Positions 9,240 through 64,000 of a stretch of DNA of 64,000 bases are shown one piece after another; position 1 is the stretch's first letter; each line of letters starts with the position of its first letter. Position numbers and translations under genes: made by a program. Where the stretch lies: positions 79,610,001 to 79,674,000 of the forward strand of contig NC_086097.1 in assembly GCF_963921235.1 (NCBI RefSeq), given 5' to 3'. Under the pieces are notes generated by a model. It was not told the DNA's origin, did no database searches, and saw only the letters and a program-made list of their open reading frames with translations. This DNA is from Mobula hypostoma (lineage: Eukaryota).

Positions 9240-9837
9240 TAGGGTTGCCAACTGTCCCGTATTTGCTGGGACATCGGGTATTGGTTTGTCCCATACGGGA
9301 CTGCCCTTGTCCCGTATTTCCCCCACTAAGGTAGAGCTTTCCTATGAAACCTTTCATGCAAAAATGGCGTAAAGCGAAGAAGCAATTACCATTAATTTAT
9401 ATGGGAAAAATTTTTGAGCGTTCCCAGACCCAAAAAATAACCTACCAAATCATACCAAATAACACATAAAACCTAAAGTAGCACTAACATATAGTAAAAG
9501 CAGGAATGATATGATAAATACACAGCCTATATAAAGTAGAAATAATGTATGTCCAGCGCAGACAGGAAGATTAAGCCAAAACCGATTTGTGGGAAAAAAA
9601 ATCGGCACGTACGCGCATGCGCACACAGGTGCCCGCGCAAGGCTTCATGGTCATGGTAGTCTTTCTCGGGGTAAACACAAGTGTCCCGTCAACACACACA
9701 AAAAATGCTGGTGAACGCAGCAGGCCAGGCAGCATCTATAGGAAGAGGTACAATTGACATTTCGGGCCGGGACCCTTAGTCAAGATTTGACTGCTACTTT
9801 TGTCCCTTATTTGGGAGTGAGAAAGTTGGCAACCCTA
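9240..9837. mobile_element. Inner TIR element (hAT Blackjack-like) nested in the Charlie-like element
   Basis: 14-bp perfect TIRs TAGGGTTGCCAACT / AGTTGGCAACCCTA with repeated subterminal TGTCCCG motifs; no TSD recognisable. Confidence 0.7.
9689..9785 (-). mobile_element. Penelope terminal (pLTR) fragment with a decayed hammerhead motif
   Basis: Closely similar to 56025-56120, the terminus of the Penelope element. Confidence 0.85.
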
Positions 9838-10798: not shown

Positions 10799-11218
10799 AC
10801 CATATAAAAATTACAGCGCAGAAACAGGCCATCTTGGCCCTTCTAGTCTGTGCCAAACTCTTACTCTCACCTAGTACCACCGACCTGCACTCAGCCCATA
10901 ACCCTCCATTCCCTTCCTGTCCATATAGCTATCCAATTTAACTTTAAACAACAACATCGTACCTGCCTCAACCACTTCTGCTGGAAGCTCATTCCACACA
11001 GCTACCACTCTCTGAGTAAAAGTCCCCCTCATGTTATCCCTAAACTTTTGTCTTTTAACTCTCAACTCATGTCCTCTTGTTTGAATCTTCCCCACTCTCA
11101 ATGGAAAAAGCCTATCTGTGTCAACTCTATCAATCCCCCTCATAATTTTAAACACCTCTATCAAGTCCCCCCTCAACCTCAACCTTCTACGCTCCAAAGA
11201 ATAAAGAATAAAAATAAA
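10799..11218 (-). mobile_element. CR1 3' fragment nested in ORF1 of the host CR1
   Basis: LYSLERRRLRLRGDLIEVFKIMRGIDRVD; host ORF1 resumes after 11220; possible TATTA duplication at 10794-10798 and 11219-11223. Confidence 0.85.
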
Positions 11219-11571
11219 TATTACTGCTGCCATTCTCTTCTGCTCCTGACCCTTCTAAGCCACTGGGCCAGACTCAGTGCCACAGGCACAGCTGCTGTTG
11301 CTTGCCCCAGGTAGGTCGTCGCCCCCAACAGTACTCAAAATGGAGTACTTATTGTTAAGAGGGATGGCCACAGGGGTGCTCTCCACCTCATGAAGCTCTC
11401 TCTTCCCTATTCTGACAGTCACCCACTTATCTGTCTCCTGTGACCCCGGTGTGACTACCTGCCTGTAGCTCCTATTGATCACTTCCTCACTTTCCCTAAC
11501 AAGCCGAAGATCATCAAGCTGCAGCTTGATGCACCTGGTGCAGATGTGGTTATCAGGTATCTTTGCATCTC

Positions 11572-12122
11572 AAAGCTCAAAGTAAATTTATTATCAAAGT
11601 ACATATATGCCATCTCTGAGACTTATTTTCTTGTGGGCATATTCAATAAAGCCATAGAATAATACCCATAACAGAATCGATGAAAGACCGCACCAACTTG
11701 AGCATTTAACCAGTGTGCAAAGGACAGCAAACTGTACAAATACAGAAAAAAAGAAACAAATAATGATAATAATAAGAAGAAATAAATAAGAAACAAATAT
11801 CGAGAAGATTCCTTGAAAGTGAGTCCTTCAATGATGGGATAAGTGAAACTAAGCGAAGTTTTCCCCTTTGGCTCAGGAGCCTGATGATTGAGGGGGAATA
11901 ACTGTCTCTGAATCTAGTGGTATGAGTCCTGAGGCTCCTGTGCCTTCTTCCTGCTGGAAGCAGCGAGAAGGGAAAATGTCCTGTTTGGTGGGGGTCCCTG
12001 ATGATAGATGCTGCTTTCCTACAACAACATTTCATGTAGATATGCTCAATAGTGGGGAGGGCTTTATGTATGATGGACTGGGCTGTATCCATTACTTTTT
12101 AGTAAGATTTTCCATTCAAGGG
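11572..12122 (-). mobile_element. Rex1/Babar 3' part, split by the full-length CR1
   Basis: ORF 11706..12092 has KAASIIRDPHQTGHFPFSLLPAGRRHRSLRTHTTRFRDS; continues at 16261. Confidence 0.85.
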
Positions 12123-12325
12123 CTCGGGGAGAAGGGTCTGCACTGCGCAGGCACGTGACGTAGCGCGCCAAGGTTTAAAAAGCAGACCACCATATACAGC
12201 GGCCATCGTCAGAGTGGACTGAGTCAGAGTGGGGTGGCTTTGGCTCAACAGGCTTCGGCGAGAACAGGCAGAGGCCAGGGTAGGTTCTGGTAAGTTTTTT
12301 GTTCAGAATGTCTAGCGTAGAGAGA

Positions 12326-13262
12326 ATGCCAGGCAGGATGTTGGAATGCTCCTCTTGCAGGATGTGGGAAGTCAGGGAGCCCTCTGGTGTCCCTGACAAC
12401 GACACCTGCAGGAAGTGCATCCAGCTGCAGCTCCTGACAAACGGCGTTAGGGAACTGGAGCAGGAGCTGGATGACCTGTGGATCATTCGGGAGAATGAGG
12501 AGATTATAGATAGTAGCTACAGGGAGGTAGTTACGCCAAAGGAGCAGAGGACGGGAAATTGGGTCACTGTCAGGCGAGGGAAGAGGAAAGGGCAGGCAGA
12601 GCAGGGTTCCCCTGTGGCCATTCCCCTCAACAACAAGTATACCGCATTGGATACTGTTGGGGGGGGATGACTTACCTGGGACTAGCTGCAGTAGCCGGAT
12701 CTCTGGCACTGAGTCTGGCTCTGCAGTGCAGAAGGGAGGGGGGGAAAAAGAGGAGAGCGGTAGTGATAGGGGACTCTATAGTTAGAGGTGCAGATAGAAG
12801 GTTCTGTGGTCGTGACAGAGAATCCAGGATGGTTTGTTGCCTCCCAGGTGCCAGGGTCAAGGATGTCTCTGATTGATTGCATGACATTCTGAAGTGGGAG
12901 GGTGACCAGCCAGATGTCGTGGTGCACATCGGTACCAATGACATAGCAAGGAAGAATGAAGAGGTCCTGGACAGTGAGTATAGAGAGCTTGGTAGGAAGT
13001 TGAAAAGCAGGACCTCGAGGGTGGTAACCTCAGGATTGCTACCTGTGCTATATGCAGTGAGGGTAGGAATAGGATGCTCTGGAGGATGAACAAGTGGCTG
13101 AGGAACTGGTGTAGGGGGCAGGGTTTCAGATTTCAGGATCATTGGGACCTCTTCTGGGGCAGGTGGGACCTGTACAAGAGAGACGGGTTACACTTGAACC
13201 ACAGGGGGACCAATATCCTTTCAGGGAAGTTTGTTAGTGCTATTGGGGAGGCTTTAAACTAG
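12326..13262 (+). pseudogene. CR1 ORF1 (CxxC...CxxC zinc finger, coiled coil, SGNH esterase), disrupted
   Basis: CSSC...CRKC, VVIGDSIVRG, VVVHIGTND and DGLHLN spread over several frames; frameshift in the G-run near 12660 and a stop near 12875. Confidence 0.9.
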
Positions 13263-13264
13263 AT

Positions 13265-16170
13265 TTGCAGGGGGATGGGAACCAGAGTGCCAGAGCTGAC
13301 AGTGTGGCTGGGGTGAAAATAAATGTAATTGAAAGTTTAAGCAAATCCGCTGATAGAAAGGTTGTGAGTGGTGGTAAAAATCTTCTGAGGTGTATATATT
13401 TCAATGCTAGGAGTATTGCGGGGAAGGCAGATGAGTTGAGGGTGTGGATTGACACGTGGAATTATGATGTTGTAGCAATTAGTGAAACTTGGCTACAGGA
13501 GGGGCAGGACTGGCAGCTTAATATTCCAGGGTTCCGATGTTTCACATGTGATCGAGGCAGAGGAATGAAAGGTGGGGGAGTAGCAGTGCTTGTTAGGGAA
13601 AATATTACAGCAGTGCTCAGGCAGGACAGATTAGAGGGCTTGTCTACTGAGTCCTTATGGATGGAGCTGCGAAACAGGAAAGGTATGGCCACATTCGTGG
13701 GATTGTATTACAGACCACCCAATAGTCAACGAGACTTGGAAGAGCAAATCTGCAGAGAGATAGCAGGCAACTGCAGGAAACATAAAGTTGTGGTGGTAGG
13801 GGATTTTAATTTTCCATACATTGATTGGGACTCCCATACTGATAGGGGTCCAGATGGTTTAGAGTTTGTAAAATGTGTTCAGGAAAGTTTTCTAAATCAG
13901 TAAATAGAGGGACCAACTGGAGGCAATATTGGATCTCCTGTTAGGAAACGAATTAGGGCAAGTGACAGAAGTCTGTGTAGTGGAGCACTTTGGTTCCAGT
14001 GATCATAACACCATTAGTTTCAATTTGATCATGGACAAGGATAGATCTGGTCCCAGGGTTGAGGTTCTGAACTGGAAGAAGGCCAAATTTGAAGAAGTGA
14101 GAAAGGATCTAAAAAGCGTGGATTGGGACAGGTTGTTCTCTGACAAAGATGTGATTGGTAGGTGGGAAGCCTTCAAAGGGGAAATTTTGAGAGTGCAGAG
14201 TTTGTATGTTCCTGTCAGGATTAAAGGCAAATTGAATAGGAATAAGGAACCTTGGTTCTCAAGGGATATTGCAACTCTGATAAAGAAGAAGAGGGAGTTG
14301 TATGAAATGTATAGGAAACAGGGGGTAAATCAGGTGCTTGAGGAGTATAAGAAGTGCAAGAAAATACTTAAGAAAGAAATCAGGAGGGCAAAAGGAAGAC
14401 ATGAGGTTGCCTTGGCAGTCAAAGTGAAGGATAATCCAAAGAGCTTTTACAAGTATATTAAGAGCAAAAGGATTGTAAGGGATAAAATTCGTCCCCTTGA
14501 AGATCAGAGTGGTCGGCTTTGTGCGGAACCAAAGGAAATGGGGGAGATCTTAAATAGGTTTTTTGCGTTTGTATTTACTAAGGAAGCTGGCATGAAATCT
14601 ATGGAATTGAGGGAATCAAGTAGTGAGACCATGGAAACTGTACAGATTGAAAAGGAGGAGGTGCTTGCTGTCTTGATGAAAATTAAAGTGGATAAATCCC
14701 TGGGACCTGACAGAGTGTTCCCTCGGACCTTGAAGGAGACTAGTGTTGAAATTGCAGGGGCCCTGGCAGAAATATTTAAAATGTCGCTGTCTACGGGTGA
14801 AGTGCCGGAGGATTGGAGAGTGGCTCATGTTGTTCCGCTGTTTAAAAATGGATCAAAAAGTAATCTGGGAAATTATAGGCCGGTGAGTTTAACGTCAGTA
14901 GTAGGTAAGTTATTGGAGGGAGTACTAAGAGACAGAATCTACAAGCATTTGGATAGACAGGGGCTTATTAGGGAGAGTCAACATGGCTTTGTGCGTGGTA
15001 GGTCATGTTTGACCAATCTGTTGGAGTTTTTCGAGGAGGTTACCAGGAAAGTGGATGAAGGGAAGGCAGTGGATATTGTCTACGTGGACTTCAGTAAGGC
15101 CTTTGACAAGGTCCCGCATGGGAGGTTAGTTAGGAAAATTCAGTCGCTAGGTATACATGGAGAGGTGGTAAATTGGATTAGACATTGGCTCGATGGAAGA
15201 AGTCAGAGAGTAGTGGTGGAGAATTGCTTCTCTGAGTGGAGGCCTGTGACTAGTGGTGTGCCACAGGGATCAGTGCTGGGTCCATTGCTATTTGTCATCT
15301 ATGTCAATGATCTGGATGATAATGTGGTAAATTGGATCAGCAAGTTTGCTGATGATACAAAGATTGGAGGTGTAGTAGACAGTGAGGAAGGTTTTTAGAG
15401 CCTGCAGAGGGACTTGGTCCAGCTGGAAAAATGGGCTGAAAAATGGCAGATGGAGTTTAATACTGACATGTGTGAGGTATTGCACGTTGGAAGGACAAAC
15501 CAACGTAGAACATACAGGGTTAATGGTAAGGCACTGAGGAGTGCAGTGGAACAGAGGGATCTGGGAATACAGATACAAAATTCCCTAAAAGTGGCGTCAC
15601 AGGTAGATAGGGTCGTAAAGAGAGCTTTTGGTACATTGGCCTTTATTAATCAAAGTATTGAGTATAAGAGCTGGAATGTTATGATGAGTTTGTATAAGGC
15701 ATTGATGAGGCCGAATCTGGAGTATTGTGTTCAGTTTTGGTCACCAAATTACAGGAAGGATATAAATAAGGTTGAAAGAGTGCAGAGAAGGTTTACAAGG
15801 ATGTTGCTGGGACTTGAGAAACTCAGTTCCAGAGAAAGGTTGAATAGGTTGGGACTTTATTCCCTGGAGTGTAGAAGAATGAGGGGAGATTTGATAGAGG
15901 TATATAAAATTATGATGGGTATAGATAGAGTGAATGCAAGCAGGCTTTTTCCACTGAGGCAAGGGGAGAAAATAACCAGAGGACATGGGTTAAGGGTGAG
16001 GGGGGAAAAGTTTAAAGGGAACATTAAGGGGGGGCTTCTTCACACAGAGAGTGGTGGGAGTATGGAATGCGCTGCCAGACAAGGTGGTAAATGTGGGTTC
16101 TTTTTTAACATTTAAGAATAAATTGGACAGATACATGGATGGGAGGTGTATGGAGGGATATGGTCCGTGT
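13265..16170 (+). pseudogene. CR1 ORF2 (APE endonuclease + reverse transcriptase), disrupted
   Basis: [40 protein letters not shown] and FADD; in-frame stops at ~13901 and ~15396 plus frameshifts. Confidence 0.95.
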
Positions 16171-19668: not shown

Positions 19669-20999
19669 TACATTACAGGACTTATGCAAGGCATGAGCTA
19701 GCTCAGATAATTGGTTTCAGTACAACTTGTAAGAAAGCTGGTTGTATTTTCACCTTCTGGCACACATGTCATAAGTGAGCAAAAGCAGATGGTGGAAACA
19801 AGGAAAGCAGTAGCAATCTCATATTTCCGAAAACAAAACCATCCAAATAATGCTCAGATGAATATAGATGTTGCATCCTCAGAGCACTCTTAATGAACAG
19901 GATAATTCTGAAGCAGTTGTAAAAATTGTGATGACCAGTGTCCCAAATGTACTGCATACACATGCGGAGACTTAGGCGAGTCTTGACTGTGAATATTTTG
20001 ATGTCACAATTCCTTACATTGTCATCAATGCAAAGATTGACTAAATGCATGAAATACCACATGCAGCAATCAAAAACTGCTTGCAGAACTTGACTGAGGG
20101 CTTGTAGATTATAAATGTCACTTTAAATAAGTACACAGAAACTTTGCCTTGACTATCACTTCATTAGTGTTGCATGAGAGGGATTTATGGAGAGCAAGTA
20201 TGTGAAATGGATTATTGCTCAGCACGCTTATTTTTCTTATTCAATATAGCTAGATCAGTCAATGTCCCAATGGTTGATGCTGTATCTCACAGGCTCTAAA
20301 CTGCCAGAGAACACAGAGCAGAGCATCTCTGTATTAAGGCAATCATGTAAGTGGTTTGGCTCCAATCTGTGGGATATGTAGAGGTTGTATAACATACAAG
20401 GAAGAGAGGAAATAAATATTGTTAGTTGTATATTTGTACGCACCTAGCTGTTTCAAATATTGTTGTTTAATGTGTAAAGATCTGGTTATATTTTAATCCT
20501 ACATACACCACCATTTCATCTTGCAGTTTTGGCTACCATCTGGCAAATGGCTTTTCATTTGTGTATCAAGATATTAATGTCAGACAGTGAGCAATGGGAG
20601 CTGTGAAAAGTTGTTTACAAGACTGACTTCAGAATGGAAGGGAAAGTTCCAATTTTGCTTTTGGACATCAAAAGGATATATTGTTCAAGTCCAAGTGAAG
20701 CTCACAAAGGTGAGGGGTTCCTGGCCAGAAATGTGTGCTATTATTATTGCAATTGTTTCATCATATTCTTCTTCTTCATTATAGTCACTGTCTATAGTGT
20801 TTATTTATGACACACAAAGTGCTTACTGCAGATTCAACTCACATTGCCACAGTGAGTTAAGGAGGCCAATCTCATTCTGGAGACCATGGCTGGTACATAT
20901 TGAATTGCATATCAGATACCCCAACATCATTTTAAGTATCTGATATGCATTTTCAGCATACCGATGACTTACTCAGTTACACATCTCATTGTGTGCTTT

Positions 21000-21155
21000 C
21001 AACAGGAATTCTGCAGATGCTGGAAATTCAAACAACACACATCAAAGTTGCTGGTGAACGCAGCAGGCCAGGCAGCATCTCTAGGAAGAGGTACAGTCGA
21101 CGTTTTAGGCCGAGACCCTTCGTCCTGCTGCGTTCACCAGCAACTTTGATGTGTG
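21000..21155 (-). mobile_element. Mini Penelope pLTR insertion with a fold-back end
   Basis: Matches 55995-56115; 33-bp perfect inverted repeat; 14-bp TSD TCATTGTGTGCTTT at 20986-20999 and 21156-21169. Confidence 0.9.
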
Positions 21156-21934
21156 TCATTGTGTGCTTTTATTGTTTTGCTTCCCAATGGTCACAAGTTA
21201 AGGTGCATCACTTGTTTCCAGCACTCAGTCAGCAAGTCAACTCTCTGATTAGGGTAGTGAACTGCCACAGGTCGAAGGTGTAATTTTTAAAAAGACAGAT
21301 GTGTCCTTTTCAATGAGAGGGCAGTAAAACCTATTACAGAGCTATGGTTTCAGGATAATCAAGATTGGGAACTCACTATTCCAGGTTATTCAAAATTCCA
21401 AAAGACTGTCAAAAAAGGAAAAGAACTGGGGTAGCTTTGTTAATGCAGCAAAGGGTATTGTGTTTGAATTTTCAGAAGGAATTTAATAAAGTGAAACATA
21501 AAATACTGGTACACAAGATAAAAGCTGATGGCATTGAGGGAAGTGTTTCAGGAAGGACTGTAGATTGATTATGAATGGAATATGTTTTTTATCAGGCTGA
21601 AAAAATAAATCTAGTGGAGCGTCCCAAGGATGTGGATAGAATCAAATACTTTGTGTCAGCACAGAAGATTTAAAATGTTATCCCATTATAACTGCCAACA
21701 ACTTTTAAAAAGGGTTTTGCATTCAGTTTTGTCAATTAGAAATTAATTTACTCACTAAGGTTAATCTCTTGCTTCATACTTTGCATATAGTTTCCTCAGA
21801 GACTTGTCTATCATTTCAGTGAATTATGGACTCAACTTTGATATAACAGTTGATGTAATATGCAATATTTAATAGTTAAACAAGTACCATAATGATCTCT
21901 CATGGATTAGAAATGGGAAATATATACTATCTTT

Positions 21935-22171
21935 GCATCACTATCAGCAGGAAGGAGAAAGACCTACACTCAACATTTTAGAAACAGCTTCTTCCCCTCT
22001 GCCATCAGATTTCTGAACAGTGAATGAATTCATGAACACTACCTTGCTATTCTTCTTTTGCACTATTTTTTTTGTTGTAACCTATAGTAATTTTTTTATG
22101 TCTTGCATTGTACTGGTGCCACAAAATAATAAATGTCATAATAAGTCAATGATAATATATCTGATTCTGAT
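21935..22171 (+). mobile_element. Rex1/Babar 3' tail
   Basis: AACAGCTTCTTCCCCTCTGCCATCAGATTTCTG (NSFFPSAIRFL) and CTGATTCTGA tail; similar to 59480-59720. Confidence 0.75.
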
Positions 22172-25059
22172 AATTTACTGACTTTTGGGTTGTGATCTTG
22201 CATATCAGAACTTTGATATCTTAGTTACATAGCAAAAATTTGAAAACAAATCTATTACATAACAAAATAGTCATTCTACCCATTATAATATGACGGTAAC
22301 CAAATTGTGGTATACCCATGTAGATTCCAAAGCTATTGTACAATTCCAAAACCTGAGAAATAAAGCTGTATTTTCGAGATATAAAACAATTCCATAATGT
22401 GAATTACTGAAACAATTATTTAACACTTCTCCCCTGTATACAGTAGCCAGTTTTCAGTGACTTGTATACAATCACAGGATGCATGTACCTTAAAGAACCA
22501 TCATCTCATTAGTGACCCAACAGCAGAAGTCCTGAGCATTAACTTCACTCAAAGACAATGGATAGGAGTCAAAAGAATCCATATAGAGTATTGTTAGCAC
22601 GGCCATCAAGTGAATAATTGGATTTTCATTATCAGTCTCTTGGACAGGAATGTATTTCATCAGCTTGGTCACTAAACGTATACCACAGATGACACTTCAT
22701 TTTTCTAATTGACATTATATGAGGCTATCAAAGGTGCAGATAAGTTAGACATCCCATCATAAACACTACCAATTCAATGATGGGAGTAGTATTAGATCCA
22801 CAGGAGTCCTAAATTTAAGGTTCTCTTGCAGTGCATCAAAATTGTTATTAGTCATGGGTCACGTTAGGTCTGACCCTAAGGTCTTCCAACCCAACCCCAA
22901 ACTCAGAATTCTCTTGAGAAGTTATGATTGCATTCAGAGTGAAGCTTAATTCCTAGCCATGTCAGATTCTGGATGCCTGCGGACTTGTGCTCAGCAGTTG
23001 CTTCTTTTTGGAAGGAAAGCAATCTAATACAGGTGGAAGGCCAGTCCAAAAGCAGCAGTGGAGAGGCCAGTCCATTGGTGGTACCTGAGGGATGAGTAGG
23101 GAATTGAAATTGGAAGTAACATGATTAGCAATTGTGGCCTTGGATGATGTTGAGACCCACTGCTTTGCAGGGCTTTTAATGTACATAGATTTTTCTATAT
23201 CCATTCTCATCTCTCAAAAAATTCTTTTAAATCATATTAAATCTCACATTTTACTGTCATTTAATTTTTATTTCTTTTTATTTATGGAGTTTTAATTATT
23301 TATGCATATTTAATTAATTATGCATAGTTTCTCTGATAGTATTGTGGGTCACCTGGCAATGCATACTGAGAAGCCACATACTGGTAGTGCTAAAGATATT
23401 AGGAAACCATTTGAAGTCCTACAATGGAAAACTGGCTCATGGCCATTTTTTCCCGTCACTAAGCCACAATTTACCAGATTCAATATTTAATTGATTTTGT
23501 ATTTTGCACCAATAGGATCTGACCTTGAAATTTAAGTTACTAACTCATTAACTACTATACTGTCTGAATATTTTAAAGTAAAATATGTGTAGTAGTGTTG
23601 CTTAAGGCAAATAATTTGTTGGGAGTATGCAGTTTAGTTTGGAGCTTGCCTGTTAAATAATTATTTTCCTTAAAGTACAAGGTATTGAACAATCTCAGCA
23701 TACCATTTCCAAATGTTCTGCATATTTTAATCAAGATGATTACCTCATCTCTATAAGTAAAACATTTTGCTGCACTGGTGTAGATGTGCTACAAAATAAA
23801 AGATTGTTCAATGTAAACTTTGTGATAAATTTGTTGAAGGAAACAGGTTGAATTTGGTAAGCTGTGAAGTTAGTTGTTATTGGTCATGAAAACGTTGACA
23901 CATCTAAAATACTTCAATTTATAGGAGATAATATACCAGATTCTTTCAAAACAAATTTTGCAAAACCTCTGGTTTTGACTAAAATATTTAGATAGCAACT
24001 TACACACAAGTGCAACAAAACTTTCATTGGATTTACTAAACTTTTAAGAGATATCTATTGAATATGAATTAACTGTGTATAACCTCTTTAATATGAACAG
24101 CATGTCAAGATGATTTATTCATTTTGAATGTCACCTTGGATCCAGAACTTCACCATTGCAAGCAGTACAGCAAATGACTGTTAATTAGGAGGCCCAGGTT
24201 TGGATCCTTTCCTTGACTAGGATAAACCCTTTCATTCGCCTTTAATCTTGATATAGGCATTTAAATTTCAACAACAATTTTAAAAGGAACAACATTAAAG
24301 TGAGCAGATACAGGCAAACAATACATGAAAGTGACAAAGAAATTGACTTGAAGATCCAGAGTATAAATCAATGAACTGCATAACAAAACATGGAGGGTTT
24401 TAGCAAAAAGCAGACTATCCATGAAAGGGTATGCTCATATTTTTATTTGCAGCAATTAATTTCAACATGGTGTAATTTGCAGCAGAAAGCAATTGCATCC
24501 AGAAACAATATCAAGCAGCCCTGGAATAATACAAGGCATTGAAATCACAGAAAAAAGTTTTTCTCACCACCTTGACGAGAATAACCTCAAACTAATCTCT
24601 GAAAATCTTCTGTTACAAAGTCTTATTAAATGTGGTTATCGCCTCATAATCATGTTTGTGAATAAATCATGTCACAACTATGTTAATCATTAATCAAACT
24701 CTCAAAGGAAATGAGAAACAAATGGATGGCACAGAAGGTATATTTCAAAGATTAGCTTTATTTGTTACATGTACATCAAAACATACAGTGGAATGTGTTG
24801 TTCTTGTTCACACACTGCCTCTCTTTGACATAGTCCAAAAACACATCGTTGGGTATGATGATGACAGTTAGATGCATCTCACTCAGCACCTTTGACTGTG
24901 TACGATCTGTCATACTTCTCATCAGTTCTGGATTAGCAGATGTTTGTGTTTATTCAGCAACATTAAAAATGTATACCATCATAATATGTAATCTTATGGT
25001 TTGGTATATCTTCACTCGGTCATTACTATCAAACAAAAGGATCAATCCTTTTCAATGAA

Positions 25060-27110
25060 AAGTGCAGAAGGGCAAGCAGGGAGTGACATGAGGTGACAGA
25101 AGGTGTCAAGAAGTATGCTAAACAGCATGGAAAAGACCTCATAGTCCATGGATCAGATCAAAGCATTGCAGTCCTATTACATCTAGTTGTTAATGGGGGC
25201 AAACAATAGCATTCGGGAAGTGGCGCAGGCTCCTGATATCCTGTCCTCAATAACAGTGGGCCCCAGCATGAGTGCTGTAGAAAATTCTGAAATATTCTGA
25301 ATTTGAAAAGATGATCCATAATGCTTCCTCCTGAATCTCCACCTCTGCAAAAACCAGCCTTCAGCCAAAATGATTCACTCCATGTTAGAATTAGAATTTT
25401 TATTTTTTACATCTATCTCACAACATGAGGGAGTAAAGATCACTATGTTGCATCTCTGTCACCATGTACAAGCAATATTGAAGGGAAATATGGGAGGATA
25501 TTGCCCAAACACTAAGATTGTATACATAATTGTTTTGTACACGTTATGTACAGTCAGATATGCAATCCGATCAATGTGTATTGATAAATCTGATGGACCG
25601 GTGAAAGAAGCTGTCCTGTAGCCTGATGGTCTTGGCCTGAAACAGCTGCTTGATTTCTTGTGATACCAGGAAATGGGAAGAGCACTGGATATAGCAAAGA
25701 TTATGGGAAAATATGCTATCTCTCTATAGTATTGCAGATTTGTAGACTTGGACTGGCAGTGCAGTTAGAATGATAGAATCTACCTTACATTGTAGAAAAT
25801 TGCACAAGTGTGCCCTTTTTAAAAAGAGCAAAACAAATCCAATTCTAATAATTGCTTCTCAATCAATCTACCCTCAATTATTAGCAGTGACAGAAGCCAC
25901 CACTGATAATACTATAAAGCAGTACTCACTTACCATCAACCTACTCACTGACAATCAGTTTGTGTTTGGACTGGACTTCCTCATAACTGCAGCCCAAATG
26001 TGAACCAAAGAGCTGAATTCCAGAAGTACAGTGTGGTGACAGTAATGGCTTTGACATCAAGTCAGGATTTGTTTCAGGGTGAAGCTTAGAAGCTTCATAA
26101 AACTGGTCAATGGGAAAGCACAAGAAGGTTGGAGTCATACCTTAAATAAAGAAAGATGAGTGTGATTGATGAAGGTCAAATATCCCAGCCTGAGGGCATC
26201 ACTGCAGGGTTCCCAGGGAAGTGTCTTCGACTCACCTTCAGCTGCTTCATCAGTGAATTTCCTTGACATATTATTAGAAATAGGGATACCTGTCGATGAT
26301 TGCACAAAGTTCGATTCTATTTGCAAGTCCTCATCTAATGAACTAGTCCAAGCTTGCAAATATTTGAGTAGGGGCTAAGAGGCAGATAACATTCATGCCA
26401 TGAGACTGATCATCTGCAACGAGAAAGAATCTTACCATCTACCATTAACACTTAAAGACATCACCACCCAAGTGACTATTCCATGGATTACTATTGACCA
26501 CAAAGCCAACTGAACAGACACATAAAAACTGTGACGATAAGAGCAAACTTGAGGCCATGTATTCTGCCATGAATGACTCACTGATATTCCAGTGCCAACA
26601 AAATCCAAGCCTGAAGCATGATGGAATGTTCTCCACTTGCCTACATGGGTCAACTCTCACAATTCTCAAGAAGCCCTACACCATCCAGGACAAAGCAGCT
26701 TGCTTAACTGGGACCCTATGAACAACACTAAATATGAACTTCCCTCCTGGCATTCAGTGGCTGCATTGTGTATCTGCTACGAAATGCATTACTATTGCTT
26801 AGTCAGGCTAATAAGATGTCGCCCTATTAAATCTCCAACTTTTACAGCAAAGACAAGGGAGTAAGTGCATGAAAAGACTACCATCTACTGGTTCTCCAAG
26901 TTAGCCACCATCCTGAGTTGGAAATATATTCTCACTCCTTTATCATGACAGGGTATAAATCCTGAAAATGCCTGTATAATAAGGTGTACCTTCACCAGAA
27001 TTAAATCAAAGTTCAAAAAGGAAGCTCAGCACCTTTTTTCAAAGCTAGTTAGAGATGGATAATAAATGTAGCAGTCAGTGATTGTCAGATTCCAAAAATG
27101 TATTTAAAAC
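25060..27110 (+). mobile_element. Ancient CR1/L2-group LINE remnant with a younger insertion at ~25385-25650
   Basis: Decayed RT motifs LLTDNQFVF, a QGS-like segment (GGTTCCCAGGGAAGTGTCTT) and VDD; subfamily not assignable. Confidence 0.55.
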
Positions 27111-27289
27111 AATAGGGGAAATAAAAAACCACTATGTTCAGTTCTGATTGCAACTCTGTTCTTAAGTCATCAATGCCATTCCTTCCTCACTGCAAGTCTA
27201 AGACTCTTAGAAACCATTCATAATTTTATCTGCTTCTTTTATTCACCTGACTAGTGCAATCCTTTCCTGCCTAGGGTCTTAATCTTTCC

Positions 27290-27610
27290 ACGTAACAGAG
27301 AATGAAGCCATACAGCCCACTGAGTCTATGTTGGCTCATTCCTAAATCCTATTTCCCTGCTAATACTCTATAACCTATTCCTCTCACATACCCATCAGTT
27401 CCACCATTCATATACACAAAGAACACTTTATAGTCTACTGTGGCTAATTAATGTACCAACTGGCGTGCCTTCGATTTAAAGAAATGTGTACCTGGAAAAA
27501 GCATGCAGTCACATTGGGAATGGGCAGACTCAACAAAGACTACTCCAGAGGCTGGGATCAGAACCAGGTTACTTGAGGTGTGCTGTAGTAGCTCTGCTAG
27601 TGAGTCACTG
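27290..27610 (-). mobile_element. Degraded SINE (V-SINE-like)
   Basis: Reverse-complement CR1-type tail (GCCATACAGCCCACTGAGTCTATG) and V-core-like GAATGGGCAGACTCAAC. Confidence 0.45.
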
Positions 27611-30391
27611 GTCCATTTAGTCAGAACAGCCTGATCCAGTTTTCCACTTAAAATGGTCGCAAATCTAGCATTGCTTCAATTTCTCTCATTCTTGCTTTTA
27701 AATTTCTCTAGAACATCTATATTTACCTCCATAGTCTCCACCATTGCTCCAATATCTCTGCATTACTTGAATTGTGATTTCCATAAACCAGATTTTAATT
27801 ACTCCATCATAGCTGGCTGTAAATTCAGCTCTGGAATTCCCGCTTTAAAACACTCCACACAAGCTCATGACAGATGTTTGGGGTAATTTCACTCCGTTAA
27901 TAAAATTGTTTGCAAATACAACTGTTGTCTTTTTCTCCACATGCAGTGCCTAACCTACTGAGTATTTTCAGCTTTTATCTTTTATCACAATGGAATTTGC
28001 AATGAATACAATGATATAACTATGTGCAGTTAGGAAAGCCAGCCTTAGCTATAAGGTATGCAATGTTTTAACCAGGTAATTTAATCATCCAATAGACATG
28101 CACAAATTAACTAATTATGCAGTAGTGTATTAGTTAACATTTAATTTTTTAATTTAAAAAATTATTTTTAAGCTTCTTTAGGAATCTATTTATTGTTTCA
28201 TCAGACACAATTATACAACTTCCTTGTTTCAAGGTCTTCTTACAGAAAACACCAAAACAGTTTTTAGTTAATCTGCATGGACATGTAAATATTAGAAAAG
28301 AGATTCTCAAATAAGAAGCTGTGCATTAATGTTGATAACAAGGTTAACTTTAAAGAGCAATAATCATTGTTACATTCTACTATTGTCAAAAAAAAATCAA
28401 GAAATGTCTTTCATGGAGTTTTGCGCTGAAATAAAACAATCTTCTACTTTTACTCCATTAACTTCTGAATACATCATATTTTCAGCGAGAATTCACCAGA
28501 GGCCACTTAAGCATTGTATAATTATGACAAAGGAGCAGAAGGAAAACCACTCAAACCGTTATTTAAAAACATACAATAAAAGAGTATTATTCATTGCATG
28601 GAATAAATTATTTTCTTAGTTCTTCTGTGAAAATGGTACAATTCTGTGGTCTCTTAAAATTTCAAACATGCTTAGAGACAAGGGATATACTCATAATGAG
28701 CAATATAGGACAACTTCAAGGACAAAAATACAACAAAAAAAGAAAATCCGGTATTTTTTTGAATGCCATTCAGCAATGAGGAAGAATAGAATGGCTTCAA
28801 TTGTTGGCTAGCACCAGAGGGCAACTGTTTTCCACCATTTATATACCATTTATGTTTATAATTTTGAAATGGAGATGGTTGAACTCGATATAGTTTAATT
28901 CAACAACTACAGGTTAAGTAACTGAGAGATTGAATCTGCTATATCTACATGATTGCTTTAAGGATTATAGAAATACAAATGAGACAATGGGAACTAACAG
29001 TGACTTCATATCCCAGAGAAAGGTTATGAACATTCTTTCTCAGAGAACTTATTTACTCACTGAAAATGTACAATGTTAAATATAAACTTCTGGATAATAA
29101 ATGTATGTTATAGTGCTGAAATAGGGCCTAATTGAATAATTTTGCAACATTATTCGTATAAATAGAGAATTGAAGATAGCTGGTCATTAGCAAAATGTGA
29201 GAAATTAATGGATACTAGCTTCATGCATCTACAGAGGGACAAATATCGTTGTGATATTCTTGCAGACTCTATATTAGCCACCCATTGCCCATATCAAAAT
29301 AGTATTAAATCATATCTATTTTGCACCAAACCAAGTCCAAATTGTGTTCCTCTGTTAACTAGATAATGACAACTCAATCATGTTCATCACATGTATATGG
29401 TAATGAAAACAATGTAGCTAGCAGTACCTTCAAGCTGGCTATGCACATTGTTTGGTAAGTTTTGGCTTGGTAAATTACTAGTTTACTTACTGAAGATTGT
29501 GATAAAACCTTAAATCAAAACATCACCAGGAATTTAATGGATTCTCAGAATACTATTCAACTCTTCTCTCACTGATAACATAGTTTGCTGAGTTCTGCAT
29601 TTCTCTATTCTACCATTAGAAACAAACATCTAGGATAGGACTTAACTCTTTATTTATGCAGAATATTGCAATTACAAGTTTGCAAAAATCATGAGAACCT
29701 GCAGAAAATAACTTGGATTCAGCATTAAGTATATAAGCATTTCTATTTTTAAGTTGATCAGGTGTTGTGAGTGCATTTACTGTATAACAGAATTCACCAA
29801 GATGAACGGTTTTGAATTTCATTTCTACTACTAGTCTTTGAATCCTATACCTTTAGAATTTGGAATGTCATTTTGAAAAAAAACCCCTATAACAATAAGA
29901 AAGTGAGAGGAACTCTTCTACCTATGCTCCTTCCAAGTGCCTTGAATAGATAATGAAATTCTAACATCTGATCTTTACATATATATTTTCCCGGCAATCT
30001 TCCAAAAGTAGAAACAGAAAGTCAATAATGAAGTCAGTGCGAAGTCAGAAATAAATAAAATCCCTCCTTATACTCTATGTACTTACCAAACTTGCATTCA
30101 TTTGGTCTTATTTTGCAGTGTTCATTTGTTCCCTAAATTTTTAATAATTATTGCTGTCATTTAAGAAAAAAATAGTTATGCCCAAACGCATTATATGCTT
30201 GGAGTGAAAAAAGTCCTGCACTTTGTTTCTTCGTTCTATCCCAAAATACCCTCTTACCACATTGCTCATTTTATTTCAGATCAGAATCACACCATCAAAA
30301 GTAACATGCAGAATTGTAAAAACTGTGTTCACAAGAGCAGGGCGCAAAGCAACACAGTAGTGCTAATGATGCAAGAACACGTGCAGTGTAC

Positions 30392-56416: not shown

Positions 56417-58213
56417 CTAGCGGAAGTTAGAGAAGTCAATGTTCATGCCATCAGGTTGGAGGCTACCCAGACGGAATATAAGGTGTTGTTCCTCCAACCT
56501 GAGTGTGGCTTCATCTTTACAGTAGAGGAGGCCGTGGATAGACATGTCAGAATGGGAATGGGATGTGGAATTAAAATGTGTGGCCACTGGGAGATCCTGC
56601 TTTCTCTGGCGGACAGAGCGTAGATGTTCAGCAAAGCGGTCTCCCAGTCTGCGTCGGGTCTCACCAATATATAAAAGGCCACATCGGGAGCACCGGACAC
56701 AGTATATCACCCCGGTCGACTCACAGGCGAAGTGATGCCTCACCTGGAAGGACTGTTTGGGGCCCTGAATGGTGGTGAGGGAGGACGTGTAAGGGCATGT
56801 GTAGCACTTGTTCCGCTTACACGGATAAGTGCCAGGAGGGAGATCAGTGGGGAGGGATGGGGGGGACGAATGGACAAGGGAGTTGTGTAGGGAGCGATCC
56901 CTGCAGAATGCAGAGAGAGTGGGGGAGGGAAAGATGTGCTTAGTGGTGGGATCCCGTTGGAGGTGGCGGAAGTTACAGAGAATAATATGTTGGACCCGGA
57001 GGCTGGTGGGGTGGTAGGTGAGGACCAGGGGAACCCTATTCCTAGTGGGGTGGTGGGAGGATGGAGTGAGAGCAGATGTACGTGAAATGGGGGAGATGCA
57101 TTTAAGAGCAGAGTTGATAGTGGAGGAAGGGAAGCCCCTTTCTTTAAAAAATGAAGACATCTCCCTCGTCCTAGAATGAAAAGCCTCATCCTGAGAGCAG
57201 ATGCGGCGGAGACGGAGGAATTGCGAGAAGGGGATGGCGTTTTTGCAAGAGACAGGGTGAGAAGAGGAATAGTCCAGATAGCTGTGAGAGTCAGTAGGCT
57301 TATAGTAGACATCAGTGGATAAGCTGTCTCCAGAGATAGAGACAGAAAGATCTAGAAAGGGGAGGGAGGTGTCGGAAATGGACCATGTAAACTTGAGGGC
57401 AGGGTGAAAGTTGGAGGCAAAGTTAATACAGTCAACGAGTTCTGCATGTGTGCAGGAAGCAGCGCCAATGCAGTCGTCGATGTAGCGAAGGAAAAGTGGG
57501 GGACAGATACCAGAATAGGCACGGAACATAGATTGTTCCACAAACCCAACAAAAAGGCAGGCATAGCTAGGATCCATACGGGTGCCCATAGCTACACCTT
57601 TAGTTTGGAGGAAATGGGAGGAGCAAAAGGAGAAATTATTAAGAGTAAGGACTAATTCCGCTAGACAGAGCAGAGTGGTGGTAGAGGGGAACTGATTAGG
57701 TCTGGAATCCAAAAAGAAGCGTAGAGCTTTGAGACCTTCCTGATGGGGGATGGAAGTATATAAGGACTGGACATCCATGGTGAAAATAAAGCGGTGGGGG
57801 CCAGGGAACTTAAAATCATCGAAAAGTTTAAGAGCGTGAGAAGTGTCACGAACATAGGTCGGAAGGGATTGAACAAGGGGTGATAAAACAGTGTCGAGGT
57901 ATGCAGAAACGAGTTCGGTGGGGCAGGAGCAAGCTGAGACAATAGGTCGGCCAGGACAGGCAGGTTTGTGGATCTTGGGTAGGAGGTAGAAACGGGAAGT
58001 GCGGGGTGTGGGAACTATAAGGTTGGTAGCAGTGGATGGGAGATCCCCTGAGCGGATAAAGTTGTTGATAGTGTGGGAGACAATGGCCTGGTGCTCCTTA
58101 GTGGGGTCACGATCGAGGGGTAAATAAGAGGAGGTATCCGCGAGTTGTCGCTGTGCCTCGGCAAGGTAGAGGTCAGTACGCCAGACTACAACAGCACCCC
58201 CTTTATCAGCGGG
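56417..58213 (-). CDS. Penelope-type reverse transcriptase + GIY-YIG endonuclease (N-terminally truncated, open for ~600 codons)
   Basis: PADKGGAVVV, LPKIHK, GRPIVS, MDVQSLYT, GVAMG, RYIDD, FLDL and VIYCVRC..C..LYIGET. The annotated start at 58237 lies in flanking DNA. Confidence 0.93.
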   Translation of the reverse strand, partial: PADKGGAVVVWRTDLYLAEAQRQLADTSSYLPLDRDPTKEHQAIVSHTINNFIRSGDLPSTATNLIVPTPRTSRFYLLPKIHKPACPGRPIVSACSCPTELVSAYLDTVLSPLVQSLPTYVRDTSHALKLFDDFKFPGPHRFIFTMDVQSLYTSIPHQEGLKALRFFLDSRPNQFPSTTTLLCLAELVLTLNNFSFCSSHFLQTKGVAMGTRMDPSYACLFVGFVEQSMFRAYSGICPPLFLRYIDDCIGAASCTHAELVDCINFASNFHPALKFTWSISDTSLPFLDLSVSISGDSLSTDVYYKPTDSHSYLDYSSSHPVSCKNAIPFSQFLRLRRICSQDEAFHSRTREMSSFFKERGFPSSTINSALKCISPISRTSALTPSSHHPTRNRVPLVLTYHPTSLRVQHIILCNFRHLQRDPTTKHIFPSPTLSAFCRDRSLHNSLVHSSPPSLPTDLPPGTYPCKRNKCYTCPYTSSLTTIQGPKQSFQVRHHFACESTGVIYCVRCSRCGLLYIGETRRRLGDRFAEHLRSVRQRKQDLPVATHFNSTSHSHSDMSIHGLLYCKDEATLRLEEQHLIFRLGSLQPDGMNIDFSNFR

Positions 58214-59249
58214 TTTTTTCCCTGCTGATTTGTGCATTACTTATTTCTCAACCAACTAGCCAACAGCAGATTAATTAACCATCACATTGAAATGTGTGAG
58301 AGCTTGTGATGTGCAGAACTGGCTTTGGCCACATGTAAAATTGATTATCTTAATTTAGATATGTAAATCCTGGTTCAAGTGGTTATTTTAAAATAGATGT
58401 TCCAATATGTGGACTGCTGCACTTTCGGAGGGTGTCATCTGAAATCACGCTCTATCATTTCATATTATATTCCCAAAAAATGGCAAAATAGAATTTCCTC
58501 AGAATTTATTTTTACTATTATATCTACAGACAATAAGTACTTTTTAAATGCTGACACATTTCACTGTAGTGAAAAATAGTTTACACACCACTGTCAGATT
58601 CTCTCCTATTTCCTCTTTTCCAAGAAGGATATCCTCAGCTTTTGCAATCCAGTAAATAATCAAGCAGTCCATCAGCTGCACAGTTTCTTTTCTAATATCA
58701 TATGATTACATTTAAAATACCCACATTTCAAGTGTTTGAAGGTCTGATAAGCACAAAGCTGCATTCTGCTAGGTACTTCTAGGAAAGCCAGAAAGAAGCT
58801 AATTAAGATCTGATTTCAAGTAATGATTGCAGAGCAGTACTTCTCAAATTGGTGACTGGTAATAATGACAATTAATTATAGTGACCACTGAAGCAAACAG
58901 AAATTCCTTTCTTTAGCACAGTTACAGTCTCACAATGCCTGTAGCAAAGATTAAAACGACAATTTGACAGAAACAGCCACTCAGTAATAGATATTTCTCA
59001 TTTATTTTAATTAGGCTTTATTTCCTGCTCTGTTTCTTTTAATTGTCAAAAATATCCTGAATGGAAATGCCAGTACTGATCAATAAAAGATCAGGGGAAG
59101 AAGCTGATTACTGCAGCTTCAGTATTCAGAAACGTATTTGCCATAAAAATGTCAGGTGATAAAGTATTTCCCTTTCATCAGATACTCTGTTCCAAATGTA
59201 TTATGTAAACAAATAACAAGATCATCAAAATGCTTCTTCCTGTTCACTG

Positions 59250-59720
59250 GGTGAATCACCATCTGGTAGGGAGGGGTCACTGCACAGGATCAGTGAAAAC
59301 TGCAGAAAGTTTTAAACTCAGTCAACTCTATGATGGGCACTAGCCTCCACAACATCCAAGTCACCTGCAGAAGGCATTGCCTCAAAAAAAGGTCTATGAA
59401 GGACCCCCAACACCCAGGACATGTCGTCTTCTCATCGCTACCATCAAGGAGAAGGTGCAGGAACCCAAAAACACACACTCAATGTTTCAGGAACAGCTTC
59501 TTCCCCTCCACCATAAGATTTCTGACAATGAACCCATGAACACTACATCACTATGTATTTTCTGTTTTCTTTCTGCACTACGTAATTTAATCTATTTTTA
59601 ATATATACTTGTTATTTATAGTTTTCATTACTACATATTGCAATGTACTGCTTTTGCAAAACAACAAATTTCACAACATATGCTAGTGATATTAAACCTG
59701 ATTCTACAAACAATTCTGAT
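59250..59720 (+). mobile_element. Rex1/Babar 3' fragment
   Basis: KDPQHPGHVVFSSLPSRRR...FRNSFFPSTIRFL and tail AAACCTGATTCT. Confidence 0.85.
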
Positions 59721-59804
59721 AACTATTCTTTCCAGAAACCTGATTGGATGAGGACTAACCAATCTTCATTTCTTTATTTAGGATGGACAACAGGGGTGTA
59801 AGTT
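59588..59804 (+). repeat. Left copy of a ~217-bp direct repeat flanking the HERO-like element
   Basis: Aligns with 63467-63683, including a ~59-bp identical block AATTCTGATAACTATTCTTTCC...ACCAATCTTCATTTC. Confidence 0.9.
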
Positions 59805-62800
59805 TAAAGAGAAGTATACCCGCAGAGTCTGCGAGAACGGGGGCGCAAGAAGACTCTCTGACTGACCTCCCGGTAACGAACCTTGGCATGGACACGACAA
59901 AGAATCAAGAAAGTGGCAATATTCTTGAGAAACCAGCAGCTGGACATGTTCTTCAGACCTGTAGGTGTGGCTGGACTGAAGTAACATCAACTCGTGGCCT
60001 TAAAATTCATCAAGGATGGAAGAAATGCATGTAAATCTCCAACCCAGGGCCCCACATTGACCAGATTCTGTTAAGAGGGAGGTCAAATCAGTTGGATGAA
60101 ACTCAGTGGCAGGAAGAAACCCACAGTCTGCAGAGTACCAGCACCCTATGGGATGTGGAAGAAGTTTCAGGCACAAGCAGTAGTCCAAGACACAGCAGTC
60201 ACATCGTAAGGTGGAGAACATGCAAGGACGTAAGCCAATGGTGAAATGGCCAAAGTCTAACAGCAAGGAGTGGGAAACCATCAATGCAGATGTGGGCCTG
60301 ATTTTAAGTGGCATCAAGGGATCAGCAGAAAAGAAGTTGGAGAAGATGGGGACCTGATTTACAGCTATGGAAAGGAGAAATTTGGAGTGAAGGAACAAGT
60401 CAGCAGGAAAGATATGCCTCCTCCCCCCAAATCCCGTCGTCTCCAGGAAATCCAACAACTTGTTAAGGAAAGAATTGGCCTGAGGAAGTCGTGGAAAAAA
60501 TCAACAGCAGAAGAAAGGGAGAGCATCAACCTCCTTCAAAAGGACCTAAAATAGAGGCTCTCGAAGCTGCGTAGAGCAGAGAATTTAAGGAAATGACTCA
60601 AAAAGAAGGAAAAAGCAAGAACAGACTTCTACAATCTACAAAGATCCCTTTAAATATGTGAAAGGCATTTTCACAAAAGAGAAAAACGGATCCTTGAAAG
60701 TATCAAAAGAAGAGGCTGAAAGACATCTCAGAACCATCCACACTGATGAACTAATAGATGAACCGATACTTGTCCCAGCTGACATCCTACCAACCTCACC
60801 CTCACATCATCAATTTAACATCAGCCCTCCCAAGCTGAGTGAGGTGAAAGAGGCAGTGAAGAAGGCAAGATCGGCATCAGCGCCAGGCCTAATGGTGTTC
60901 CGTATTGTGTCTACAAGAACGCTGCGGATGTTCTGAAATTTCTCCGGAGAAACAGGAGGGGTGCGTGGGAAAAGCAAGTGACCCCCAAAGCCTGGAGAAG
61001 AGCGGGGTGAGTTCTGATCCCAAAAGAAAAGAATTTGTCCACCATCGAACTGTTTTGCCAAATAAACCTTCTGAACATAGAAGGCAAGATCTTTTTCAGT
61101 GTGTTGGCGCAAAGACTTACAAAGTATCTGAAACAAAACCATTTCATTGATACGTCAATTCAAAAGGCTGGCATAGCAGGCTTCTCGGGATGCATTGAAC
61201 ATACCAACATCATATGGCATCAAATCCAGATGGCTAAGAAAGAAGGAAAGGATCTGTATGTCTTGTTCCTTGACCTGGCCAACACCTATGGATCAATTCC
61301 TCATTCCCTAGTGTGGTCTGCTTTTGAATTCTTTCAGGTGCCTGCAACAATAACAAATCTGGTAAAACACTACTTCCAGGATATGCAAGTTTGTCTCACA
61401 ACATCAGACTTCACCACAGCGTGGCAACCACTGGAAGTAGGCATCATGGCGGGGTACACCATTTCCTCATTTTCCTTCACTATGGCAATGGAGCTCATTA
61501 TCAGAGCCTCAAAATGGGTTGCGGGAGGAAAACAGCTACAGTTTGGTCAACGGTTACCACTGACACGAGCCTATATGGATGATATAACAACACTGACGAC
61601 AACTGTCCCCTGCACCAAGAGACTTCTGGAAAAGCTTCATCAAAACATCACATGGGCAAGAATGAAGATCAAGCCCAGCAAGGGCAGAAGCATCTCCATT
61701 GTCAAAGGTCAAGTCACGGATCAAAGTTTTCATATTGACGGAACACCTGTCCCATCTATTTCAGAAATGCCAGTGAAGAGCTTGGGCCGATGGTATGATG
61801 CTAAGCTCAAGGACGCTGAGCAGTTTGAACAACTGAAAAAGGATACCATCATGTACATAGCTCGCATCAACAAGACCTGGTTGCCAGGAAAACTCAAGCT
61901 GTGGTGCTTCCAGTTCGGCATACTCACAAGACTCATGTGGCCTTTAACAGTGTATGAAATCCCCATCAACAAGGTGGAAAAGCTCAAAAGAGTGATCAGC
62001 ACACATGTGAAACAGTGGCTTGGACTTCCACAATGCTCAAGTCCTGTTGGACTATATGGGAACGGCAAATTAGAATTACCAATTGCAAGTCTTGTGGAAG
62101 AATTCAAATGCACCAAAGCAAGGTTGGTCATGCCCCTCACTGAATCTGAAGATACTGTTATTTGAACAGTGGCCCCTGGTGTGGCAATGGGGAGGAAGTG
62201 GACCCCATCTGAAGCCGTTCAGAGTGCTAAGTCTGCTCTTCGCTTCAGGGACGTGGTTGGCCAAGTCCAACTTGGGAGAGCCGGGCTTGGGCTCGTCCCA
62301 AAGGCTCCTCAATGGCACAAGGCAACATAAATGCAGAAGAGATGACTCGTGGTGGAGGAGGTGAGAACACAGGAGGAGGCAGAGCGACACGCCAGGGCCG
62401 TCTCAAAGGCCAAGCAGGGCCAATGAACTATTTGGGAGAGCCTGGAAAAGAGGAAACTCAGCTGGCATGACATCTGGGAGACGGAGGGATCTTGGCTAAG
62501 TTTTGTCATCAGAGGCACTTATGACCTCCTGTCCACACCCCAGAACCTGAACCAGTGGTGGGGAGAAGACCCCGCTTGCTCTCTTTGTCAAGCACCTGGA
62601 TCACTAAGGCACATTTTAACAGGATGCACCACGAGCCTCAGCCATGGGCGGTACACTTGGCAGCATAACCAAGTTCTCAGACAGCTGGCATCAATCTTGG
62701 AACAGAGGCGAATCACCACAAATGCTCTCTCACAAATATCGGCAAGAAATGTTCACATCACACGACTTGTACCAGCAGGCCAACCTCCAGAGCACCACAT

Positions 62801-63466
62801 AACATCAAAAGAGGTAAGCATTCTGCAGGTTGCTCGGGATTGGAAAATGGATGTGGACTTGGGGAAAAAGGCTTGTGTTTCCCCCAGACATTGTGGCTAC
62901 AACACTCCGGCCAGACATGGTCCTGTGGTCCACAACAGCCAAGTTGGCATATGTTGTGGAATTGACAGTACCATGGGAAGATAGTGTTGAAGAAGCTTAT
63001 GAGAAGGAAAAGACCAAGTACTCTGAACTGGCAACTGAAGCTGCTCAGAATGGCTGGAAGACCAAGATTTTCCCTGTAGAAGTGGGCTACACCTATGACC
63101 AGTCTATTGAAAAAGATGGGGGTTGGGGTTACTCACTCCAACAAGCAATCAAGTCCTTGTCAAATGCAGCAGAAGAAAGTCGTAACTGGATTTGGATTAA
63201 AAGGGAAGACAACAACTGGGCTGCAAGATGAAGACAAGAGGGTATGGAACTGAGGGGGGTGTATCTGGGATGCCAGGTAACACCGTTGAGCCCTCTGGAG
63301 ATGTCGTGGGCTTATCAATGAAATGTCAAAGAAGGAGAGTGCCCACCTGACGACCCCGATGAGGTACCTACCCTCCTTGACACCACTCCAAGGCCACTGC
63401 CAACATCAAGAGTGCCCACTTATCATAGGGATTGAAACATCAAGTCCTATTAGCTCTACAATCTAC
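59805..63466 (+). mobile_element. Near full-length decayed HERO-like (R2 group) non-LTR retrotransposon: zinc finger, RT, CCHC, restriction-like endonuclease
   Basis: CRCG...GLKIHQG..KC, LLNIEGKIFFSV, FLDLAN, AYMDD, CSLC....SLRHILTGC, YTWQHNQVL and RPDMVLW...VELTVPWE; stops and frameshifts present. Confidence 0.88.
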
Positions 63467-63683
63467 TAATCTATTTTTAATATATACTTCTTGTTGTTGT
63501 TTATAATTTTTATTACTACGTATTCCAATGTGCCGCTGTTGCAAAACAACAAATTTCACAACATGTGCTGGTGATATTAAACCTGATTCTAATTCTGATA
63601 ACTATTCTTTCCAGAAACCTGATTGGATGAGGACTAACCAATCTTCATTTCCTCATTTGGGATGGATAAGGGGGGCATAAATT
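63467..63683 (+). repeat. Right copy of the ~217-bp direct repeat
   Basis: See 59588-59804. Confidence 0.9.
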
Positions 63684-63822
63684 CCACTGGATGATGCCCA
63701 AGCATCATCCCTAATGAAGATGGCAGAATTTGTCATCAAAATGTTGGTTAAAATTGATACCTGCACTCAGTTGTAAGCCCAAGAATTTATTTCTTATATA
63801 TGCCAGGAAAGCACTAGATCCT
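63600..63822 (+). mobile_element. Terminal fragment of a second Penelope-like family with a decayed hammerhead motif (63707-63749)
   Basis: CTAATGA-A-GATGGCA GAATT TGTCATC-AAAA-TGTT, consistent with a decayed CTGATGA / 7-bp stem II / GAAACGTC. Confidence 0.55.
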
Positions 63823-64000
63823 TTATTGGGAACTGTACATATTTTAACAATACCAGTAAAAGCAACAGCAATCTGCTTTCAACTGCAATACAATCAAAAT
63901 ATCAGAAAACTTGGCATTTAGAAAAACGTTAAGAACCAGATGTTAACTGTCTACATTTAAATACCTACAACAACATGATTAAATTATTTAAATTTTAAGT

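Follow-up and report, generated by a model that had tools for sequence, protein, structure and literature searches.

Introduction

In the standard model of LINE integration how long a target site duplication (TSD) becomes is determined by where the second cut falls (PMC2666801, PMC6895275). Among the described systems, human L1 in HeLa cells leaves TSDs longer than 100 bp in up to 10% of recovered insertions, and in NER-deficient cells the long TSDs reach 57–91%, are ascribed to a distant unrelated nick and include one listed at 217 bp (PMC5223499). For ZfL2-2 a long TSD, of 1228 bp, was reported in 1 of 25 insertions (PMC2666801), and heterogeneous target duplications of ~1 kb arose with avian R2 when its nicking of the second strand was impaired or diluted (PMC13486585). 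Long duplications are also described for R9 of Adineta vaga, with a 126-bp TSD (as cited in PMC6895275 and PMC13486585), and for Dualen-4b_cRei of Chlamydomonas, where the TSD is long in more than half of insertions and has a median of 900 bp (bioRxiv 10.1101/2022.05.23.493040).

The HERO clade belongs to the R2-group LINEs, which carry a single ORF with reverse transcriptase (RT) followed by a PD-type endonuclease, and its members are mostly not site-specific (PMC3636483, PMC4640811, PMC9004415). The TSD length of HERO was not found in the literature searched, which lay mainly outside subscription papers and Repbase; the original HERO description and the Repbase entries may state it. The available parts of PMC7650587 and PMC10294476 contained nothing on HERO TSDs.

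The present work concerns one locus in a 64,000-nucleotide stretch of Mobula hypostoma DNA, analysed as a whole and referred to below as the window. According to the original prediction, a HERO-like retrotransposon with a restriction-like endonuclease (RLE) is flanked here by a ~217-bp direct repeat that could be a giant TSD. The surprise implied by such a length was overstated, since TSDs above 100 bp are known in L1, ZfL2-2, R2, and Dualen. The data presented below make it rather likely that the repeat is a long TSD left by one insertion of an RLE LINE, as a sporadic outcome and without a habit of the family.

Anatomy and Kinship of the Element

The element and its parts are located in the window as follows:

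59800..63466, + strand: HERO-like non-LTR retrotransposon of the RLE type, decayed and ~3.66 kb long, without the ~185-nt 5' leader that full-length relatives have
59963..60028, + strand: N-terminal zinc-finger-like motif, C-x-C ... H ... C, from the window translation
61062..61694, + strand: reverse transcriptase core (Pfam RVT_1, E 1.2e-14; YMDD at 61572-61583)
62577..62979, + strand: CCHC knuckle (62577-62627) and, beyond a frame break, the PD motif of the restriction-like endonuclease (62908-62979)
63232..63466, + strand: the element's 3' UTR with its short tail/linker, from matches to relatives

The frame of the element is interrupted by 5 stops in 652 codons. With the read-through frame as query, 103 long relatives were retrieved, of which protein P0003 is the closest at 77% identity; its residues 3–1149 align by tblastn over 59801-63228 in several frames, with the last residue at 63228. 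In the zinc-finger-like motif C56, C58, H72, and C78 are invariant in 22 of 22 aligned relatives. The CCHC knuckle was present in 27/27 and the PD..ELTVPWE pattern in 23/27 of the close relatives tested, and the APE motif GDFN was absent in 27 of 27 relatives. The 3' UTR matches relatives at 75–77% over ~63246-63368 and L012 at 93% over 63427-63455. By these motifs the element is assigned to the R2 group (RLE) of non-LTR retrotransposons, with one ORF predicted to encode RT and then CCHC and a PD-type endonuclease, and with no APE.

The best PDB matches of the element are R2 structures (E 2e-36). The named relatives come from lamprey, bony fish, and lancelet, and none of the 103 bears the name HERO; no relative was found in viral contigs and one distant relative was found in genome contigs. 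The insertion is into the tail of an old LINE, and flanks differ among the relatives' loci. The element appears HERO-like in that it fits the R2 group (PMC3636483) and the host range of Hero (PMC9004415) as given in the available text, HERO being meant as a likeness. The names HERO, Rex1, and Penelope are tentative, based on anatomy and on leads.

Several further observations concern the same group. Among the 103 long relatives a Ulp1-type protease domain (PF02902) was seen in 52 (P0041-P0105), each ~39–42% identical, and the close relatives are without it. A HERO-like RT was also met on a 4.6-kb contig (L028) of a bacterial gill-symbiont genome record, which is probably host DNA in the assembly. 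In the runs X4 and X7 contig depth rises from ~140–600 at the 5' part of the element to 20,000–43,000 at its 3' end (62900-63467), which points either to short 3' copies in their thousands or to a SINE with the same tail.

The Direct Repeat and Its Junctions with the Element

The two copies of the repeat are as follows:

59588..59804, + strand: left repeat copy, made up of LINE tail as far as ~59711 and of the opening ~90 bp of a second repeat; the last 5 nt of the copy overlap the element start
63467..63683, + strand: right repeat copy; begins in the middle of the LINE tail (self-BLASTN, alignment)

When the window was compared with itself by BLASTN, 59588-59804 matched 63467-63683 at 86% over 223 columns (E 9e-71), and no further long match to either copy was detected within the 64 kb. 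In global alignment the copies differ by 19 substitutions in 211 ungapped columns (16 of them transitions) and by two 6-bp indels. Both comparisons confirm that the copies are colinear and bracket the element. The length of ~217 bp holds for the repeat as such; the target itself is shorter, since 59800-59804 already align with relatives of the element, leaving ~212 bp of duplicated target plus a 5-nt overlap with the element start.

The 5' junction is defined by relatives, the DNA of L002, L007, and L023 matching from 59800 and protein P0003 from 59801, with no match upstream of 59800 in the DNA of the three. The first 5 nt of the element (59800-59804) match the target at 4 of 5 positions. An ATG at 59783, inside the left block, was considered as the ORF start and rejected because the relatives have no match upstream of 59800. 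The leader of L002 begins ~185 nt before the start point of the window copy, and as full-length relatives possess this leader the element is slightly 5'-truncated. At the 3' junction L012 matches to 63455, after which an 11-nt linker precedes the right copy, and a short AATCTA motif is common to this linker and the start of the block. The repeat thus adjoins both ends of the element within 0–11 nt, as a TSD should.

The mismatches are spread unevenly along the repeat: 10 lie within the opening ~100 columns, the following 81 are identical, and the final 32 contain 9. Several of them look like CpG decay. The clustering is significant by permutation with all 19 mismatches (p 0.0012) and also when fewer are counted to allow for CpG decay (p 0.008 with 15 and 0.021 with 13), so that decay has not been uniform along the two copies. 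Such a pattern is unexpected under a simple TSD with uniform decay, and later gene conversion or the placement of CpG sites has to be added; the simplest addition is a putative gene conversion between the repeats, which lie 3.9 kb apart.

Flanking Repeats and the Origin of the Duplicated Block

Outside the repeat copies the locus is bounded by two older repeats:

59245..59587 (start approximate), + strand: Rex1-like 3' end, body of an older high-copy LINE fragment, before the left copy only
63684..63826 (end approximate), + strand: rest of the second high-copy repeat, after the right copy only

The LINE fragment, presumably Rex1-like, contains an 80-codon frame (59297-59539) with no Pfam match at E 0.1, and the nearest named Atlas cluster, PF09004 in 22% of members with a score of 0.84, serves as a lead only. 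Its contig depth is 17,000–280,000 versus ~7 for single-copy DNA. The second repeat has a depth of 8,700–12,400 in the bin 63652-63835 and of 6–10 beyond it in three runs, so that both halves of the block are high-copy repeats by contig depth. No other copy of its remainder (63684..63826) was present in the window, Rfam returned nothing meaningful on it, with three chance-level matches, and we presume it to be a Penelope-like terminal piece.

The original prediction had also stated that the LINE body stands before the left copy only and that the second repeat runs on past the right copy only; both statements were upheld, the right copy being preceded by the 3' UTR of the element.

The window contains other elements as well. 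An open 607-codon frame with RT and GIY-YIG domains at 56417-58240 (-) represents a young Penelope-like element, short terminal pieces of which are repeated at six other places in the window. A nearly intact APE-RT LINE with few stops, presumably CR1-like, occupies 13238-16115 (+).

The origin of the block was examined with contigs of four public runs (X4 from organism A, X7 from organism B, X11 from organism C, and X15 with another organism label) aligned to 58500-64000, the material listed comprising 15 of 1377 joints and 32 of 142,288 contig pieces. Copies of the LINE-tail family stop at 59705 and continue into mixed flanks, with loose-end support of 1330, 1570, 1665, and 248 and flank agreement of 0.40–0.42 in the four runs. 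It follows that the junction of tail and second repeat inside the block is no feature of the LINE family, whose tail normally gives way to unrelated DNA, and the claim that the block crosses a junction between two unrelated repeats is borne out.

In three of the 32 contig pieces listed, a further copy of the element runs at one end into long unlike sequence:

X4 record 23: other element copy, 824 nt of unlike flank after 63448
X15 record 16: other element copy, 302 nt of unlike flank after 63459
X4 record 18: other element copy, 97 nt of unlike flank before 59811

The block was attached to none of the other element copies among these pieces, so that the same block, sought on other family members, was absent at the ends of three. 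In organism C an orthologous contig (58503-59682) passes from unique DNA through the LINE body and 95 bp into the left copy. The unlike flanks of the other copies, the ending of the LINE-tail family, and this contig together speak against the block being a terminus of the element or a flank transduced by it, and against two separate insertions; in the few copies examined, the repeat is host DNA rather than a part of the element.

Age of the Repeat Copies and of the Insertion

The two blocks differ at 19/211 positions, i.e. 9.0% (95% CI 5.5–13.7), corresponding to 4.5% per copy (~2.8–6.9). The element was compared with two consensus-like contigs, chosen for their high depth from the 8 listed for X15, whose organism label is a different one, and differs from them at 31/685 positions, i.e. 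4.5% (3.1–6.4). The comparison of repeat and element divergence that had been proposed as a check thus gave 4.5% on each side, with wide intervals and from two contigs, and within these intervals the repeat copies appear as old as the insertion. Most contigs of single-copy depth differ from the element by ~10–13%, as expected of two separately decayed copies.

The flanks of the locus provide an outer time scale. In X4 (organism A) they show no difference from the window over 58500-59493 and 63796-64000, in X7 (organism B) they diverge by 2.2% (22/998), and in X11 (organism C) by 7.7% (90/1163), the contig stopping at 59682. The values for B and C would place the insertion about the split from organism C or earlier.

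Search for the Empty Site

Among the contigs listed for the four runs none bridges either junction, which cuts neither way on the empty site. A joint in X11 from 59764 to 63694 with 18 other letters was considered as an empty site and rejected; seen in one contig, it most likely stems from a different copy of the second repeat with a fit to both blocks. In organism A only 0.52 of the sampled words were present despite flanks identical to the window, and at many positions among the rows listed, in a table sorted for such rows, no contig carries the letter of the window. Likewise, the private letters of the element (59805-63466) occur in no contig among those listed for organism A. Organism A may be without the element, e.g. 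if the two repeats recombined with each other; alternatively, rare variants may have been lost from the contigs.

Alternative Explanations

A family trait is the first alternative, under which the ray HERO-like lineage would routinely complete its insertion far from the first nick and leave TSDs of hundreds of bp, either fixed in length as in R9 or variable as in Dualen. The only copy examined with both flanks has a long duplication, but it was selected for this very feature. Such behaviour is described for two elements with an RLE, R9 (126 bp) and Dualen (median 900 bp, in over half of its insertions), and the searchable literature, giving no TSD length for HERO, leaves room for it. Against the trait stand the distant relatives, for which 28 loci at ~65% DNA identity were collected; 23 were set aside because a flank or the complete 3' end was missing or because they were tandem, circular, or fragments, and five were informative (L001, L002, L006, L007, and L012), with a 5' junction, a complete 3' end, and both flanks. 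In 0/5 was there a flank-to-flank repeat of at least 20 bp. A convincing short TSD was found in none of the five either, and they may be mosaics, so that this comparison is a weak one, the loci belonging to other families in other hosts, coming from short-read metagenome contigs, and having no clear short TSD. Taken together, a family trait seems unlikely.

The same collection contained an unusual arrangement. In 9 of the 28 loci (L003, L004, L010, L013, L014, L015, L016, L017, and L023), some of them the same element twice, the units stand head to tail, the 3' end adjoining the next 5' leader, or are circular. The layout suggests template jumping, tandem insertion, or circles, similar to the pseudo-LTR of Penelope, and assembly artefacts are possible; no description of head-to-tail HERO-like units was found in the literature search.

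Tandem duplications are common in old repeats. An independent duplication of the 217 bp by slippage or break repair, before or after the insertion, the element marking the seam accidentally or because its end caused the break, would agree with this and with the uneven divergence, which indicates that the history was not simple. Both ends of the duplication lie, however, within ~10 nt of the element ends, and the ages match, which makes this explanation very improbable.

Still less probable are two insertions with recombination, in which copies landed 217 bp apart on different alleles, e.g. a long one at 59804 with a short 3' fragment at 59588, and then underwent crossing-over with each other. 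The product would look identical, allelic divergence could contribute to the unevenness, and the depth of the element 3' end, 20,000–30,000 versus ~7, implies thousands of copies; yet two events on the same strand within 217 bp are needed, which would be rare at about one 3' piece per megabase, a density that assumes a presumed genome size, and no hint that the element is chimeric was noticed.

The weakest explanation, that the block belongs to the element as a terminus or transduced flank or that two copies of a composite repeat landed on either side, has in its favour the high copy number of both block parts and the fact that a relative can carry its own 3' end before its 5' end (31 bp in L002, at L002:64-94), and is hardly credible in view of the three other copies without the block, the LINE tail normally running into unrelated DNA, the continuity of the left copy with the LINE body, also in organism C, and the second repeat, which continues once, after the right copy, and leaves no leftover piece.

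Proposed Mechanism

A sporadic long TSD is therefore preferred here; for a single insertion it is supported, short of proof, by the exact bracketing, the composite block, the three copies without the block, and the age match. The steps that could join the observed anatomy, junctions, composite block, and age match are drawn from the standard TPRT-type model. The endonuclease would nick the bottom strand at ~59588, inside the old LINE tail, and the 3' end of the RNA would prime reverse transcription there, the shared AATCTA being what annealing or slippage would give. Reverse transcription would stop ~185 nt short of the RNA 5' end. No second nick would be made near the first, and the cDNA end would be joined ~212 bp downstream via the 5-nt microhomology, either at an unrelated break of the top strand or by switching templates to the top strand, combined with strand displacement as far back as the first nick. 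Both routes yield the same product, and the sequence cannot tell them apart. Fill-in would then leave one copy of 212–217 bp on each side, after which the copies and the element would decay for an equally long time.

Significance and Comparison with Known Systems

The finding is probably a genuine long TSD and a further instance of a known phenomenon, which would be notable only if usual for the family genome-wide. As a single event it offers a clean natural case of an RLE LINE outside rDNA leaving a ~215-bp duplication, of a kind that TSD finders limited to ~30 bp would miss.

It is doubtful that a non-site-specific, RLE-only ray LINE lineage habitually lacks a coupled second nick and finishes hundreds of bases downstream. 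If it did, thousands of copies would each have duplicated host DNA, with later loss by recombination between the repeats possible, and this would be the first vertebrate LINE family found with long TSDs as the rule and a natural counterpart of nick-deficient R2. A family trait would also provide thousands of natural events to measure, make the family a source of small segmental duplications, and bear on the way in which LINEs other than R2 cut the second strand, a question named as open in PMC13486585.

Among the known systems the HERO clade has the same ORF layout as the present element, which is placed there by likeness. Avian R2 shares the RLE-type protein, but its ~1-kb duplications were obtained with engineered variants at a fixed rDNA site, whereas the present element is natural, gives no sign of having a fixed target, and is known from its sequence alone. 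R9 is likewise an RLE LINE with a TSD above 100 bp; it is rDNA-specific and of constant length, whereas the present case is one copy in decayed repeats with ~212–217 bp. Dualen resembles the locus in the long and variable duplications that flank its insertions in vivo, but it combines RLE with APE and makes them habitually, in contrast to the RLE-only element and the one event described here. Finally, human L1 and zebrafish ZfL2-2 show, as here, single insertions with more than 100 bp of duplicated target; these are APE-endonuclease LINEs studied in cultured cells, whereas the insertion described here is an old one, made in the germ line by an RLE element.
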